Positions 6,583 to 12,544 of a stretch of DNA of 16,793 nucleotides are shown here, piece after piece. Every line of letters starts with the position of its first letter. The first letter of the stretch is position 1. A program made the position numbers and the translations under genes. This stretch comes from a virus (Duplodnaviria; Heunggongvirae; Uroviricota; Caudoviricetes): IMG/VR virus record IMGVR_UViG_2571042372_000009; one strand, given 5' to 3'. The notes beneath the pieces were generated by a model. It did no database searches. It was not told where the DNA came from and saw nothing but the letters and a program-made list of their open reading frames with translations.

Positions 6583-6636
6583 TTTTATATTGGCGAGGTG
6601 ACGGGAGTTAAGTAGAATTGCTGCGGGTGCTTGAGG

Positions 6637-6672
6637 CTATCTGCCTCAGGCATGAACACCAAAGGCAGATAG
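6637..6672 (+). promoter_or_regulatory. Perfect 10-bp inverted repeat (CTATCTGCCT ... AGGCAGATAG) in the hok/mok leader
   Basis: Arms at 6637-6646 and 6663-6672 with a 16-nt spacer. Candidate hok mRNA fold-back or antisense-target element, or a protein operator. Confidence 0.4.
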
Positions 6673-6793
6673 AGAAAAGCCCCAGTTAATATTACGCGTC
6701 CTGCAAGACGCTTAACATTAATCTGAGGCTCAATCTATGAACGGCAAATCTAGGTTAGCCTCTTACGTGCCGAAAGGCAAGGAGAAGCAGGCT

Positions 6794-6949
6794 ATGAAGC
6801 AGCAAAAGGCGATGTTAATCGCCCTGATCGTCATCTGTTTAACCGTCATAGTGACGGCACTGGTAACGAGGAAAGACCTCTGCGAGGTACGAATCCGAAC
6901 CGGCCAGACGGAGGTCGCTGTCTTCACAGTTTACGAACCTGAGGAGTAA
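6794..6949 (+). CDS. hokD: Hok/Gef family type I toxin (HokD/RelF-like), 51 aa, nested in the mok frame that starts at 6737
   Basis: MKQQKAMLIALIVICLTVIVTALVTRKDLCEVRIRTGQTEVAVFTVYEPEE matches the Hok/Gef family as recalled. The overlapping upstream in-frame extension (70-aa ORF from 6737) is mok-like. A stable 3' hairpin follows. Confidence 0.85.
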   Translation: MKQQKAMLIALIVICLTVIVTALVTRKDLCEVRIRTGQTEVAVFTVYEPEE

Positions 6950-8455: not shown

Positions 8456-8830
8456 ATGCTCATAGATTTGGTTTTACCTTACCCGCCGACGGTGAACACT
8501 TACTGGCGACGCCGTGGCAGCACATATTTTATCTCGGAGGAGGGAAAGCGTTATCGCCGGGCTGTGGCGCTTATTGTTCGCCAGCAGCGGCTGAAATTAA
8601 GCCTGTCCGGAAGGCTGGCGATAAAGGTGATTGCAGAGCCACCGGATAAGCGTCGTCGCGACCTGGACAATATCCTGAAAGCACCGCTGGATGCGCTGAC
8701 GCATGCGGGAGTGTTAATGGACGATGAGCAGTTTGATGAAATCAATATCGTTCGTGGTCAGCCAGTATCTGGTGGACGTATGGGGGTGAAGATTTACCCC
8801 ATAATGCATGAAGAGCAGGTCAAAAAATGA
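8456..8830 (+). CDS. rusA: Holliday junction resolvase RusA, 124 aa
   Basis: SD AAGAGGTGA upstream of the ATG. Conserved PDKRRRDLDN motif as in the RusA family. Stop overlaps the next start (ATGA). Confidence 0.9.
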   Translation: MLIDLVLPYPPTVNTYWRRRGSTYFISEEGKRYRRAVALIVRQQRLKLSLSGRLAIKVIAEPPDKRRRDLDNILKAPLDALTHAGVLMDDEQFDEINIVRGQPVSGGRMGVKIYPIMHEEQVKK

Positions 8831-9648
8831 AACTGGAAGATTTACCGAAATACTACTCCCCAAAATCCCCTGGCCTGACCGATGCATCGGCCTCAACGTC
8901 AAAAGATGCGCTGAGTATCACTGATGTGATGGCCGCGCAGGGCATGACACAGAATCGGGCTGAGATGGGGTTTTCTGCGTTCCTGGGGAAAATGGGCATC
9001 AGTATGAATGACAGGGCGCGGGCAACAGAATTACTGGCAGATTATGCACTCAGTCGGTGCGATCGTGTGGCGGCGTTGAGAAAACTTCCGGCAGAAATAA
9101 AACCGGTAGTGATGCGCATTATGGCTTCGTATGCGTTTGAAGATTATGCCCGTAGCGCGGCGAGCAAAAAACAGTGCCCTTGCTGTCACGGAAAAAAATT
9201 TATTGAAAGCGAGGTTTTTACAAACAAGATCCAGTATCCGGATGGTAAGCCACCAGTGTGGGCAAAGTGCACAAAAGGCGTGTATCCGTCTTACTGGGAA
9301 GAATGGAAAAAAGTCAGGGAGGTGGTAAAAGTTGCCTGTCCGGAGTGTGGCGGAAAGGGTGAGGTTTCCACCGCCTGTAAGGATTGCCGTGGGCGTGGTG
9401 TCGCCATTCATCGTGAAGAGTCGGTAAAACGTGGTATGCCTGTTATCAGAGATTGCCAGCGTTGTGGTGGTCGTGGCTGTGAAAGGCTGCCATCAACGGA
9501 GGCATTTAATGCCATATGCAAAGTGACGAGTGCTATCACGCTTGATACGTGGAAAAAATCAGTGAAACGCTTTTACGATACGTTGGTGGTTCGGTTTGAC
9601 ATTGAAGAGGCATGGGCGGAGCGGCAGTTAAAGAGGGTAACGCGATAG
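8827..9648 (+). CDS. Late-gene antitermination protein Q (phage 82/Qin QuuQ-like), 273 aa
   Basis: N-terminal LPKYYSPKSP and multiple CxxC zinc-binding motifs (CPCCHGKK, CPECGGKGEVSTACKDCRGRG). Followed directly by a lambda-like pR'-tR' pair. Confidence 0.8.
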   Translation: MKLEDLPKYYSPKSPGLTDASASTSKDALSITDVMAAQGMTQNRAEMGFSAFLGKMGISMNDRARATELLADYALSRCDRVAALRKLPAEIKPVVMRIMASYAFEDYARSAASKKQCPCCHGKKFIESEVFTNKIQYPDGKPPVWAKCTKGVYPSYWEEWKKVREVVKVACPECGGKGEVSTACKDCRGRGVAIHREESVKRGMPVIRDCQRCGGRGCERLPSTEAFNAICKVTSAITLDTWKKSVKRFYDTLVVRFDIEEAWAERQLKRVTR

Positions 9649-9653
9649 TGTTG

Positions 9654-9681
9654 TTGATTTTTCCCGAATCTGTGGTAAATT
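9654..9681 (+). promoter_or_regulatory. Late promoter pR'-like (TTGATT - 16 nt - TAAATT) with qut-like initial transcribed region
   Basis: The -10 and downstream TGCTCTAACGATGGG closely resemble recalled lambda pR' (TAAATT TGACTCAACGATGGG). Immediately downstream of Q. Confidence 0.65.
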
Positions 9682-9728
9682 TGCTCTAACGATGGGCGTT
9701 TTATGCCTGACGTTAGAAGATTTTTTAC

Positions 9729-9754
9729 ACCCCGCCGCCTGGCGGGTTTTTTAT
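9729..9754 (+). terminator. tR'-like intrinsic terminator
   Basis: CCCGCC-gcct-GGCGGG hairpin followed by TTTTTTAT, about 65 nt downstream of the predicted pR' start. Confidence 0.75.
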
Positions 9755-9872
9755 GACTGAAATCGCGTCAGTACAGTAAACGCGCTGGTGGCGGTGAATA
9801 CCTGTCTTTCAGCTTGCTGGCTTTTTCGACAAGAGTTATTGGTGTGTCACGTTAACCGGAAAAGGAAAAGAC

Positions 9873-10070
9873 ATGCTAAAACAGCAGGATATGACAGAAA
9901 CCGCCAGAGTGGTGTTTAATGAATTAAGCGTTACCGACCCGGCGACAGTCGGGGAGATAGCGCAGAATACTTACCTTTCACGCGAACGCTGCCAGTTAAT
10001 ACTGACTCAGCTGGTTATGGCGGGTCTGGCAGACTATCAGTTCGGTTGTTACAGACGCCTTCCGCAGTGA
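9873..10070 (+). CDS. Small hypothetical protein with winged-helix/HTH-like segment, 65 aa
   Basis: SD AGGA six nt upstream of the ATG. ...TVGEIAQNTYLSRERCQLILTQLVMAGL... looks like a recognition-helix region. The stop is embedded in a terminator hairpin. Confidence 0.5.
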   Translation: MLKQQDMTETARVVFNELSVTDPATVGEIAQNTYLSRERCQLILTQLVMAGLADYQFGCYRRLPQ

Positions 10071-10082
10071 AGGCTTTTTTAT
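10057..10082 (+). terminator. Intrinsic terminator
   Basis: GCCTTC-cgcagt-GAAGGC hairpin followed by TTTTTTA. Confidence 0.7.
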
Positions 10083-10220
10083 TTGTGGTAAATGGGCGGC
10101 TGGTGGGTGTTAGGGGCACCCACCAGCCATCTGCTCATGCGTCCGGATCACAAGCAAACCTCAGGCCCACTGCTTTGCGCAAAAGCAGAATGAGCCTATC
10201 AGAGACAGGCTTAATGATCC

Positions 10221-11270
10221 ATGCTTAATACTGTAAAAATATCCAGTTGTGAGTTAATCAACGCCGACTGCCTGGAATTTATCCGGTCGTTACCCGAAAA
10301 TTCTGTTGACCTGATAGTCACGGACCCGCCGTACTTTAAAGTGAAGCCTGAGGGCTGGGATAACCAGTGGAAGGGCGACGATGATTACCTGAAGTGGCTG
10401 GACCAGTGTCTGGCGCAGTTCTGGCGGGTGCTGAAACCTGCCGGAAGTCTTTACCTGTTCTGTGGTCATCGCCTGGCATCTGATATCGAAATCATGATGC
10501 GTGAACGCTTCAGTGTGCTGAACCATATTATCTGGGCGAAGCCGTCCGGACGCTGGAACGGATGCAACAAGGAAAGGCTGCGGGCGTATTTCCCCGCCAC
10601 AGAGCGCATTCTGTTCGCGGAACATTATCAGGGGCCGTATCGTCCGAAAGATGCCGGGTATGCGGCGAAGGGCAGTGCACTGAAACAGCATGTGATGGCC
10701 CCGCTGATTTCTTACTTTCGTGATGCGCGCGCGGCCCTGGGGATAACGGCAAAACAGATTGCAGATGCCACAGGAAAGAAAAACATGGTGTCGCACTGGT
10801 TCAGTGCCAGTCAGTGGCAGCTACCGAATGAAAGCGATTATCTGAAATTACAGGCGCTGTTTGCCCGGGTGGCAGAAGAGAAGCATCGGCGTGGTGAACT
10901 GGAAAAGCTCCACCACCAGCTGGTGGATACGTATACCTCACTGAACCGGCAGTATGCGGAGCTGCTGAGTGAATATAAACATCTGCGGCGGTATTTTGGC
11001 GTGACGGTGCAGGTGCCGTATACCGATGTGTGGACGCATAAACCGGTGCAGTTCTATCCCGGGAAACATCCGTGCGAAAAACCGGCAGAAATGCTGCAGC
11101 AGATAATCAGCGCAAGTAGCCGTCCTGGTGATCTGGTTGCGGATTTTTTCATGGGGTCGGGTTCAACGGTAAAAGCGGCGATGGCACTGGGGCGTCGTGC
11201 GATTGGTGTTGAGCTGGAGACCGGACGTTTTGAGCAGACAGTCAGGGAAGTTCAGGATTTAATCGTTTGA
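10221..11270 (+). CDS. Orphan DNA amino-methyltransferase, beta class (N6-adenine or N4-cytosine; DPPY motif), 349 aa
   Basis: Motif IV DPPY near the N-terminus (LIVTDPPYF) and motif I FxGxG near the C-terminus (DLVADFFMGSGSTVKAA). No restriction endonuclease partner in the window. No clear SD. Confidence 0.9.
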   Translation: MLNTVKISSCELINADCLEFIRSLPENSVDLIVTDPPYFKVKPEGWDNQWKGDDDYLKWLDQCLAQFWRVLKPAGSLYLFCGHRLASDIEIMMRERFSVLNHIIWAKPSGRWNGCNKERLRAYFPATERILFAEHYQGPYRPKDAGYAAKGSALKQHVMAPLISYFRDARAALGITAKQIADATGKKNMVSHWFSASQWQLPNESDYLKLQALFARVAEEKHRRGELEKLHHQLVDTYTSLNRQYAELLSEYKHLRRYFGVTVQVPYTDVWTHKPVQFYPGKHPCEKPAEMLQQIISASSRPGDLVADFFMGSGSTVKAAMALGRRAIGVELETGRFEQTVREVQDLIV

Positions 11271-11319
11271 AACGGATGAGATTGCAGAATTAATTACGCA
11301 CCATTATTATTCTGCTCCC

Positions 11320-11395
11320 GGCCCTTTAGCTCAGTGGTGAGAGCGAGCGACTCATAATCGCCAGGTCGCTGGTTCAAATCCAGCAAGGGCCACCA
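11320..11395 (+). tRNA. tRNA with CAU anticodon (Ile2/lysidine type or Met), 76 nt
   Basis: Manual fold: acceptor GGCCCTT/AAGGGCC, D-arm GCTC/GAGC, anticodon loop CTCATAA, T-loop TTCAAAT, 3' CCA encoded. Resembles ileX/ileZ-type genes as recalled. Confidence 0.85.
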
Positions 11396-11402
11396 TCACA
11401 TA

Positions 11403-11479
11403 CCGCCATTAGCTCATCAGGAAAGAGCGCCAGCCTTCGAAGCTGGTTGCGCGGAGTTCGGGTCCCCGAAGGCGGTCCA
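11403..11479 (+). tRNA. tRNA-Arg (UCG anticodon), atypical, 77 nt
   Basis: Manual fold: anticodon stem CCAGC/GCTGG with loop CTTCGAA. One acceptor-stem mismatch (A6/A67), one T-stem mismatch, and T-loop TTCGGGT with G at the usually conserved A58 position. CCA encoded. Confidence 0.6.
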
Positions 11480-11492
11480 TTATCTGTATCCT

Positions 11493-11569
11493 GCGTTGTT
11501 AGCTCAGCCGGACAGAGCAATTGCCTTCTAAGCAATCGGTCACTGGTTCGAATCCAGTACAACGCGCCA
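11493..11569 (+). tRNA. tRNA-Arg (UCU anticodon), 77 nt
   Basis: Manual fold: perfect acceptor stem GCGTTGT/ACAACGC, anticodon stem ATTGC/GCAAT with loop CTTCTAA, T-loop TTCGAAT, CCA encoded. Confidence 0.85.
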
Positions 11570-11584
11570 CACTTATTTTCCCTG

Positions 11585-11608
11585 GCTCGCTTTTGCGGGC
11601 TTTTTTTT
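11585..11608 (+). terminator. Intrinsic terminator after the tRNA cluster
   Basis: GCTCGC-tttt-GCGGGC hairpin (one G-U pair) followed by T8. Confidence 0.65.
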
Positions 11609-11614
11609 AAATGT

Positions 11615-11830
11615 CTCACAATTCAGGCGGTTGACTGTTGTCTGGTTTGCGGGGAGTTTGTTAAAAGAAACTGGCATGGTGAATCCCCCTGTGCGGAGGG
11701 GCAATCAGCGAGTAGGTATATGGGATAATCGCGGATTCAGGTGCTGGTACTGAATTCACCGGGAGGCACCCGGCACCATGCAATGGCACATAGCGCCACT
11801 CTCCAGCCCCTCTCCGGAGGGGCTTTTCTG
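11615..11830 (+). ncRNA. Candidate structured noncoding RNA module, copy A
   Basis: Begins just after a terminator with CTCACAATTCAG...TTGACT. Contains three hairpins (CCCCCT-gtgcgg-AGGGG; CCGGG-aggca-CCCGG; GCCCCTC-tccg-GAGGGGC followed by TTTTCT). The same architecture recurs in copy B while the ORFs are not conserved. Confidence 0.4.
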
Positions 11831-12082
11831 TGCCGGATACATCACAGTTTCTGGAACCTTAGGTACTACAGTATCAGTCAGGGTGCTATATTTTCAGATG
11901 TGATGAAAGCCTGTCAGCAGGCAGGGCGTATCGGAAATGACCCAGTAGAGAAAACGTTGACTCAGATACCGGTGCTGAGTTACCGGGAAACCGGCATCAC
12001 ATGACCGCTATCCTTCCAGGCCCATCCGCTCCGGTGGGCCTTTTTACTGCAGAAAACAGGTTCCCCGTTAAATGCTATGTTG

Positions 12083-12317
12083 CTCACAATTCAGTAAGTT
12101 GACAGTTGCCTGTCAGACTGGGCATTTGTTAAAAAAATTTCGCATGGTGAATCCCCCTGAGCGGAGGGGCGACTGGTGACGGTATAATCTCTGATTATCA
12201 AAACGAGAATGACGCGGGTTTAGTGGCACCGGGCTGAACTCACCGGGAGGCACCCGGCACCATGTGCATGATGATACAGATACGCGGCTTTAGCCCCTCT
12301 CCGGAGGGGTTTTCTTG
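12083..12317 (+). ncRNA. Candidate structured noncoding RNA module, copy B (divergent paralogue of copy A)
   Basis: CTCACAATTCAG...TTGACA start, the same three hairpins with conserved stems, and a terminal GCCCCTC-tccg-GAGGGG + TTTTCTT terminator. Preceded by another terminator (GGCCCA...TGGGCC + T5 at about 12019-12045). Confidence 0.4.
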
Positions 12318-12544
12318 TGGGCAAAAAAAGCCCGCGCTGGGAGACGCGGGCGGCAAGGAATAAACAATAAAACGTGAAGTAATATTTCAGCTGGCGAATA
12401 ATACCCCATAGTAATCACTCTGCGCAACTGCGCGGTCTTTTTCGAATTGCGGGCTGTCGTCTCTCTTCTGCCATTGTCCTGTAACTTCCGGACTTCAGCC
12501 CGCTCCTTATTTTACTCACAATATTATCCCGGCCGGGAGGATTC

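Follow-up and report, generated by a model that had tools for sequence, protein, structure and literature searches.

A conserved messenger RNA (mRNA) leader with the hallmarks of a translational switch is predicted, from its covarying base pairs, to precede the M.EcoGII-type adenine methyltransferase gene of a lambdoid Escherichia coli prophage. The stretch of DNA analysed (the window) is the 16,793-nucleotide (nt) IMG/VR virus record IMGVR_UViG_2571042372_000009, assigned to the Caudoviricetes, and is the regulatory-to-lysis segment of that prophage. The enzyme is known; what is new is the leader, which fills the spacer between the methyltransferase gene and a small upstream open reading frame (ORF) encoding 65 amino acids (aa). 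An initial annotation had singled out in this spacer a perfect 12-base-pair (bp) inverted repeat (GGCTGGTGGGTG at 10098-10109 and CACCCACCAGCC at 10117-10128, with arms 7 nt apart) and a near-palindrome (CTGCTTTGCGCAAAAGCAG at 10170-10188), and had proposed that they are either operators for the small protein or RNA attenuation or processing structures. Both are present in the window and are kept as paired stems in dozens of related phages, and the comparative pairing data favour the second, RNA-based proposal. The elements that carry the argument are the following.

10082-10229, plus strand: the whole conserved mRNA leader (covariance model R1, 112.9 bits, E = 1.3e-24)
10092-10139, plus strand: Domain I, in which stem P1a (10092-10097 with 10133-10138) is stacked on stem P1b (10098-10109 with 10117-10128), from the structure-fitted alignment
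10132-10156, plus strand: P2, an alternative helix (10132-10139 with 10149-10156) supported by covariation, whose formation excludes P1a and P5
10145-10220, plus strand: Domain II, a long imperfect hairpin, from the per-sequence thermodynamic consensus
10221-11270, plus strand: the methyltransferase gene, encoding an orphan beta-class N6-adenine DNA (and RNA) methyltransferase of the M.EcoGII family, 349 aa (PF01555, 3.6e-43)

The region 10050-10240 has a predicted folding energy of -77.6 kcal/mol, which corresponds to z = -5.06 relative to dinucleotide shuffles. In an alignment of ten phages, the spacer is more conserved than both of the genes that flank it, and its length is held at 138-150 nt. 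Between the window and the Morganella and Providencia phages, whose small protein and enzyme are 48% and 62% identical to those of the window, spacer blocks such as AAATGGGCGGCTGGTGGGTGTT are unchanged. The leader is found across phages of Escherichia, Shigella, Klebsiella, Citrobacter, Morganella, and Providencia. An initial protein-based search for further loci returned enzymes that were 95-100% identical only and did not increase diversity; 80 further loci were retrieved by similarity to the Morganella-clade enzyme, in order to avoid selection bias. An exact 18-mer scan of one genome per species gave mostly chance matches in G+C-rich genomes, along with about 25 real Enterobacterales loci; this set was selected on an invariant block, and invariance was therefore judged from the loci retrieved by BLAST and by protein similarity.

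Most of the 80 protein-retrieved loci carry the same leader, many of them with a P1b stem that is wholly replaced and yet complementary: GACUGUAAAAGUG with CACUCUUACAGUC in loci of the L224 type, GACAGUGAGGAUG with CAUCCCCACUGUC in locus L274, and GACCGAUGAGUG with CACACAUCGGUC in locus L291. Because wholly different stems remain complementary, sequence comparison settles that the repeat is a base-paired stem whose own sequence is not the conserved thing. Moreover, many of the G·U alternatives in the leader stems are valid solely in plus-strand RNA; the 3' arm of the repeat reads CACCTGCCAGCC in phiP27, SfV, cdtI, and a Stx2c (Shiga toxin 2c) phage, and pairs through U·G and G·U as plus-strand RNA only. 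The architecture was derived from 62 distinct leaders (alignment A4) by per-sequence partition-function consensus; this was needed, as RNAalifold on the first alignment found Domain I and missed most of Domain II. In the MAFFT alignment, 88.2% of cells form standard pairs, against 31-42% when the partners are slid by 1-3 columns. Realignment to the covariance model (91 matches), which favours the model by construction, gives 90.7% of cells paired against 31-41% for slid partners, with 16 of the 42 pairs changing on both sides. Model R1 finds one match per related locus, each ending 9 nt inside the methyltransferase ORF, and none in about 84 unrelated G+C-rich loci in which the 18-mer occurs fortuitously. 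For the leader, Rfam 15 yielded no family at gathering thresholds in the window, sub-threshold hits at chance level only over 9640-10300 at E up to 10, and nothing over the leaders of loci L234, L002, and L291. The leader is thus apparently an undescribed and previously uncatalogued mRNA structure, conserved and supported by covariation.

In the structure-fitted alignment, the six pairs at the base of P1b are paired in 100% of cells, its five distal pairs in 97.5%, and P1a in 95%; base pairs of Domain I change from G-C to A-U or U-A in a compensatory manner in 13 sequences. Domain II is closed by helix P5 (10145-10150 with 10215-10220; 92.5% paired), the last base of which directly precedes the ATG at 10221, and it includes P3 (10163-10174 with 10183-10197; about 91-95% paired), which has the near-palindrome at its tip. 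The most divergent full-length member, L291, keeps both domains with different P1b and closing-helix sequences, and its closing helix, GGAGAGU:AUUUUCC, again abuts the AUG. Indeed, in all lineages P5 is predicted to end at position -1 of the AUG, and a Shine-Dalgarno sequence is absent; in the window none lies at normal spacing before the start codon, the nearest AGG being 13-15 nt upstream. P1 and P3 do not qualify as terminators, as they are followed by AUCUGC and AAUGAG, without a U tract.

In the alternative helix P2, the 3' strand of P1a takes the 5' strand of Domain II as its partner. P2 is paired in 69.9% of cells, against 23-46% in slid controls, and at five of its eight pairs both sides vary. 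At the pair formed by alignment columns 53 and 79, UA occurs 17 times, CG 12 times, and AU 7 times; at columns 54 and 78, GC occurs 49 times and AU 10 times. In 13 sequences column 54 is an A, which breaks P1a, and in 10 of these 13 column 78 is a U, so that P2 is kept. In L291, a three-way change at columns 13:57:75, from G:C:G to A:U:A, retains both P1a and P2. When P2 is forced, the predicted cost is 5.1 kcal/mol on average (range 0-13.1), and the number of unpaired bases among the 15 from -12 to +3 of the AUG rises from 4.7 to 8.0. This covarying alternative helix suggests a four-segment switch.

Two ways in which the spacer might instead encode a peptide were considered and rejected. A 60-aa ORF at 10046-10228 has no family match, and its frame is broken by 1-nt insertions or deletions in relatives. 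A leader peptide starting at AUG 10092 would vary, as judged by eye, between 7 and 33 codons from phage to phage, and its start is AUA in L291. The IMG/VR loci L280, L282-L286, L288, and L290 carry a shortened leader (23-29 bits) some 90 nt ahead of the ATG of the methyltransferase. This form keeps GUGAAAUGG and a P1b-like stem (GGCUGGUG/CACCAGCC), lacks P3 and most of Domain II, and may be a reduced or an ancestral version.

The enzyme downstream of the leader was described in the initial annotation as an orphan beta-class DPPY methyltransferase with neither a Shine-Dalgarno sequence nor an endonuclease, and every part of this description holds at 10221-11270. The order of motifs is that of the beta class, with DPPY at residues 35-38 and FMGSGS at residues 310-315 of a PF01555 domain spanning residues 29-340, and the closest solved structures are beta-class methyltransferases. 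Over the full length, 330 of 350 positions (about 94%) are identical to the M.EcoGII sequence in Table S1 of PMC11551740, which was machine-read with a few misreads, so that the true identity is probably slightly higher; the roughly 20 substitutions are concentrated in the central target-recognition region. By sequence, the gene product is a member of the M.EcoGII family, an already known group of adenine methyltransferases without sequence specificity. The likeness extends to length (349 aa), the order DPPY-target recognition domain-FxGxG, a prophage location, the lack of a nuclease partner, and the presence of relatives in phage 1720a-02 and other enterobacterial phages. M.EcoGII methylates adenine whatever the surrounding sequence (Murray et al. 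2018, PMC5778455). Since the window enzyme is about 94% identical to it, a recognition motif should not be expected; the initial annotation, which had called for a search for such a motif and would have taken the lack of a newly methylated one as a refutation, started here from a wrong premise. As for a partner, the neighbours of the gene are the 65-aa ORF and three tRNA genes, and the RefSeq annotation of the identical locus shows no nuclease other than the RusA resolvase over 9 kb in each direction; the adjacent cognate endonuclease of a Type II restriction-modification system is not found.

M.EcoGII, a prophage-borne enzyme of 349 aa, is silent in the lysogen, and its constitutive expression harms the cell; it comes, like its paralogue M.EcoGI, from E. 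coli O104:H4 C227-11, and its family is very large in E. coli prophages, 'including phage 1720a-02', which has a very similar enzyme (PMC5778455). This phage is also one of the two best phage matches found here, second by coverage and first by identity (94.3% at the DNA level). On the grounds of lysogen silence and harm, a review groups M.EcoGII with Mu Mom. Given the position of the window gene, in a prophage and downstream of Q and tR', and given the report on M.EcoGII, it would be expected to be silent in the lysogen as well. Self-protection against restriction, which the initial annotation had suggested as the purpose of this orphan late-gene methyltransferase, has been proposed in the literature for the near-identical M.EcoGII (PMC5778455), so that the idea is right but not new. 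Within the ORF, a perfect 14-bp palindrome, CCACCAGCTGGTGG, lies at 10913-10926; it codes for the conserved residues HHQLV and carries overlapping Chi octamers on both strands.

Upstream of the leader, four further features set the context in which it would act.

8827-9648, plus strand: the Q antiterminator gene (Pfam PF03589 Antiterm, 2e-49; 'antitermination protein' in RefSeq at the identical locus)
9731-9756, plus strand: a tR'-like intrinsic terminator (stem 9731-9746 and T run), CCCGCCGCCTGGCGGG then TTTTTTATGA
9873-10070, plus strand: the gene of the 65-aa winged-helix protein (phrog_331, 2.8e-37), with its own AAGGA Shine-Dalgarno sequence
10057-10084, plus strand: P0, a called terminator with hairpin GCCTTC/GAAGGC (10057-10074) then TTTTTTATTT

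The order of genes in the window is hok/sok, DUF968, RusA, Q, terminator, 65-aa ORF, 150-nt spacer, methyltransferase, and three tRNA genes (11320-11569), after which come two copies of the small RNA (sRNA) STnc100 and then holin and lysozyme. Many extra-intestinal E. coli genomes of human and avian origin contain the stretch 9600-11700 at 100% identity; it is matched in 3,346 of 5,426 complete E. coli genomes (about 60%), and at least 80% of it is covered in 1,754. In the phage collection it matches 300 records with 82-94% identity, mainly Stx2-converting phages. The succession of Q, terminator, small ORF, methyltransferase, and lysis genes or tRNAs recurs in SfV, cdtI, phiNP, phiP27, and phages of Morganella and Providencia, whose Q genes are unrelated; in Stx phages, the module is followed by the ileZ-argN-argO tRNAs and stx. 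Most other phages share homology with the window from tR' onward (9731; query position 132-133 of 9600-11700) despite differing Q genes, and tR' is the left boundary of the shared module. The unit made of tR', the small winged-helix gene, the leader, and the methyltransferase is a standard module of lambdoid prophages.

The Q-pR'-tR' context recognized by the initial annotation stands, with Q identified by Pfam, a strong terminator at 9731-9746 that fits tR', and pR' by eye only. A likely pR' lies within 9650-9756 (TTGATT, about 16 nt, TGGTAAATT), with tR' about 60 nt further on; the consensus promoter scan did not call it. By analogy with the lambda 6S RNA or StxS, pR'-tR' would yield a short constitutive transcript. 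The same scan returned no promoter-like site in 9400-11700, hence none between tR' and the methyltransferase. Because the gene sits between Q/tR' and the lysis genes with no promoter-like site after tR', the late transcript antiterminated by Q is most likely the sole source of the methyltransferase.

The 65-aa ORF, which the initial annotation had called HTH-like (helix-turn-helix), is, to judge from its modelled fold, a real and conserved winged-helix protein. The AlphaFold2 model (20 homologues) has a mean pLDDT (predicted local distance difference test) of 92.5 and the topology a1-b1-a2-a3-b2-b3, with helices at residues 9-16, 26-33, and 37-49 and strands at 53-56 and 59-62. Foldseek aligned it to MarR/OhrR, IclR-type, and methyltransferase-associated winged helices with TMq 0.6-0.8 (0.81 for OhrR), at E-values that are marginal, as expected at 65 residues. 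The protein belongs to phrog_331, a family of unknown function, and has 333 relatives in a large protein collection; many of them, like the RefSeq entry itself, are named 'TrmB family transcriptional regulator'. This name is loose, since the protein stays below the curated thresholds of Pfam TrmB, MarR_2, and HTH_24 (the best score, to TrmB, is 17.3 bits against a cut-off of 25.6) and a search of NCBIfam gave no match. Of 154 protein-retrieved loci, 146 (about 95%; 74/75 and 72/79 in the two sets) have the small ORF upstream of the methyltransferase; these loci were retrieved by methyltransferase similarity alone and are not independent of one another. The small ORF is directly upstream in Klebsiella phages as well.

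The terminator that the initial annotation had placed at the end of this ORF is real in the window, where the stop codon lies in the loop of the P0 hairpin and a T6/U run follows, so that P0 qualifies as an intrinsic terminator. The P0 stem covaries among E. coli-type relatives. As a general feature the terminator does not stand, for it is missing (no fold, free energy of 0) in 25 of 67 distinct upstream regions, about a third. P0 was ruled out as part of the RNA core, as it is missing in Proteus/Providencia-type loci.

Taken together, these elements could form a two-level control. At the level of transcription, a gene without a promoter of its own, located behind tR' and, in the window, behind P0, would be transcribed by Q-modified polymerase only, a dependence that we infer from position. 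At the level of translation, the leader may act as a gate on a toxic late-gene enzyme, a model that we regard as about evenly poised. In the OFF state, segments 1 and 2 and segments 3 and 4 would pair, and P5 would bury the initiation region of the AUG that lacks a Shine-Dalgarno sequence; in the ON state, segments 2 and 3 would pair as P2 and free the AUG region. Passage from OFF to ON would require the opening of Domain I, for which three triggers are candidates. The first is the ribosome that finishes the small ORF, whose stop codon is separated from segment 1 by about 10 nt in Proteus/Providencia-type loci and by 21 nt, with P0 between, in the window. The second is the small winged-helix protein itself, which might act on RNA as Com of phage Mu does. 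The third is a cut by RNase III in the roughly 20 bp of Domain I. Such a gate would suit an enzyme that is toxic to the host and of use to the phage only late in the lytic cycle, when progeny DNA would be methylated against restriction.

Several observations weigh against this gate. P2 is paired in just 70% of cells and, in the E. coli clade, is interrupted by a 2x2 mismatch. The alignment consists of two main clades, so that many of the covariations reflect few independent events; those counted are at least 3-4 full P1b replacements and several changes at the P2 pair 53-79. The AUG is unpaired in the consensus and burial is confined to its 5' flank, while P5 varies mainly on one side, its support being conservation together with the single divergent lineage L291. 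The 5' strand of Domain I is invariant and the 3' strand drifts, which implies an added constraint outside the gate model. In addition, because Flotzy (L010) and loci L213, L219, and L223 have the leader but lack the small ORF, the small protein cannot be an obligatory partner in cis. Finally, translational gating is something that we infer from predicted pairing. A bolder version of the proposal is that the leader represents a new family of bistable riboregulators specific to M.EcoGII-type genes, in which translation of the small ORF or binding of a protein to the RNA opens Domain I, P2 forms, and the start is freed. We put this forward tentatively, as a possibility with the chances somewhat against it; if true, the small protein, the leader, and the enzyme would be a single device that times genome-wide adenine methylation to the final minutes of the lytic cycle.

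Two natural deletions or mosaics bear on the layout of the module. In PhiR5_1 (L005, 2720-2900), the small ORF and the initial 25 nt of leader sequence are kept and run straight into the sequence located beyond the tRNAs in the window, the methyltransferase and the tRNAs being deleted. In Flotzy (L010, 1780-2040), nearly all of the small ORF is lost, and its last ~40 nt, the hairpin, and the whole leader are kept. The joints of both flank the invariant Chi-bearing block.

The proposed gate resembles known systems in part. In the com-mom operon of phage Mu, a hairpin beside a 'translation inhibition structure' that holds the mom start codon is bound by the zinc-finger protein Com, the product of the small upstream gene (PMC6483171). 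Both systems have an ORF of about 60 aa immediately before a DNA-modifying enzyme that is toxic and, in the window by expectation, silent in the lysogen; Mu has, and the window is predicted to have, a hairpin next to a stem that occludes the start of the enzyme gene; and the proposed aim of both is to protect progeny DNA against restriction. They differ in that Com is a zinc finger whereas the window protein is a winged helix, with no similarity in protein sequence or RNA; in that the Mu start codon is inside the stem whereas the window stem stops one base earlier; and in that the window leader is larger, with two domains and four competing segments, and the RNA binding of its small protein is postulated. 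The leader also recalls ermC-type attenuation, where a four-segment leader precedes a methyltransferase gene, pairing of segments 1:2 and 3:4 sequesters initiation, and pairing of 2:3 frees it; in Proteus/Providencia-type leaders, the upstream ORF likewise ends near segment 1 (about 10 nt). However, the window has no conserved leader peptide over segment 1 (the frames from AUG 10092 are variable, with AUA in L291), no antibiotic-type inducer is evident, and segment 4 holds no Shine-Dalgarno sequence. With the late control of lambda and Stx phages (pR', 6S/StxS, tR', Q; PMC7547250), the window shares Q, a strong terminator just downstream of it, and late genes, but the prophage lacks stx, and its leader is a separate RNA downstream of tR'. 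A limited term search of the M.EcoGII papers PMC5778455 and PMC7544214, in which 'leader' and 'UTR' (untranslated region) were not among the terms, found no mention of an upstream small ORF or leader, and a term search of the main text of PMC6266700, on the pR' regions of Stx phages, found no mention of a methyltransferase, tRNA, or stem-loop.

Other functions for a selected RNA structure must be weighed against a translational gate. The most serious of them is that the leader is an element of RNA processing, stability, or insulation, namely an RNase III site that divides the small-ORF message from that of the methyltransferase and tRNAs, a shield against exonucleases, or added termination in the absence of Q. 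Domain I, with about 20 bp and an internal loop, resembles RNase III substrates in size and shape, P0 qualifies as a terminator in the window, and three tRNA genes that need processing come after the methyltransferase; moreover, covariation shows that the structure is selected and is silent on its purpose. Yet P1 and P3 without U tracts are not intrinsic terminators, P0 is missing in a third of distinct relatives, and the leader is kept in SfV, cdtI, and phiNP, which have no downstream tRNAs. Nor would processing call for a closing helix whose end falls exactly at the AUG in all lineages, or for a covarying alternative helix. We therefore consider this explanation unlikely, if still to be reckoned with.

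Less probable again, and by our estimate improbable, is a ligand-sensing riboswitch, for example for S-adenosylmethionine (SAM) or S-adenosylhomocysteine (SAH), or an independent sRNA. The two conformers are nearly isoenergetic, with an energy difference down to 0, the unpaired stretches CUGUGAAA, AACC, and GGCCCA are invariant, and the enzyme uses SAM; against this, no Rfam family matches even at permissive thresholds, no terminator or promoter delimits an sRNA, and two long hairpins offer no obvious multi-helix ligand pocket.

The first proposal of the initial annotation, that the palindromes are DNA operators through which the small winged-helix protein regulates transcription of the methyltransferase, has also become quite improbable. 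The protein has a confidently predicted fold like that of MarR/IclR-type DNA binders, its gene is nearly always beside the methyltransferase, and in the window the repeat is a perfect 12-bp palindrome. In most relatives, however, the repeat is imperfect as DNA and paired as plus-strand RNA through G·U or small bulges, the stems are kept through wholesale compensatory replacement, no predicted promoter lies nearby to be controlled, and the leader is retained where the small gene is deleted. Identical small proteins also stand beside unrelated stems (GGCTGGTGGGTG in L234 and GACTGTAAAAGTG in L231; GACTGTAAAAGTG in L257 and GACAGTGAGGATG in L274), and the P1 stem was not found to vary in step with the small protein. 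Since the same protein occurs beside different stems, the stem sequence is not what it reads; any binding of the leader would have to rely on shape or on the invariant single-stranded flank CUGUGAAAAUGGGCG.

The weakest candidate, for which we see very little prospect, is that the repeat exists as a two-strand Chi site (GCTGGTGG), a recombination hotspot or RecBCD-attenuating element that shields rolling-circle or packaging intermediates: each arm holds an octamer (at 10099 on the plus strand and at 10120 on the minus strand), the window has 14 sites where shuffles predict 0.5, 49 of the 62 distinct leaders share an unchanged 5' arm with its Chi site as against a drifting 3' arm, and the PhiR5_1 and Flotzy joints flank the block, but the conserved stretch of 150 nt far exceeds an octamer, and a 'double Chi' as the purpose of the repeat was rejected because most relatives lose the minus-strand copy and at least 13 of the 62 distinct leaders lose the plus-strand copy with pairing kept, as seen in the GACUGUAAAAGUG, L274, L291, L243, and L264 variants. 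Chi is at most a secondary constraint on the 5' arm, for which protein recognition is another candidate.

M.EcoGII is widely used as a reagent for chromatin and RNA footprinting, and the parts of its literature consulted describe it as silent in the lysogen and toxic but give no account of the mechanism by which the phage controls it. A covarying leader that abuts the start codon would offer a concrete and testable control mechanism, and it is a candidate family for the catalogue of phage cis-regulatory RNAs. The module lies directly upstream of stx in many Shiga-toxin phages. For annotation, the expectation of a recognition motif for M.EcoGII-type genes is corrected.

The remaining observations concern the surroundings of the module. 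The 14 Chi sites (GCTGGTGG) are located between 1394 and 14823 of the 16.8 kb, 10 of them on the plus strand. This density is about four times that of the E. coli genome on average, and the plus strand would be the orientation that acts on RecBCD entering from the cos/lysis side. The tRNA cluster at 11320-11569 is the ileZ-argN-argO cluster of Stx phages, so that the window prophage has the tRNAs and the methyltransferase without stx. ARAGORN calls its first tRNA tRNA-Met (anticodon CAT) and RefSeq tRNA-Ile, which implies a lysidine modification. Between the tRNA cluster and the lysis genes, the tandem STnc100 copies are detected with Rfam at 11645-11835 and 12113-12322 (136 and 161 bits), in a region where the RefSeq annotation has pseudogene fragments only. 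In the early region of the prophage, the antisense RNA sok (6625-6799, 113 bits) adjoins hokD.

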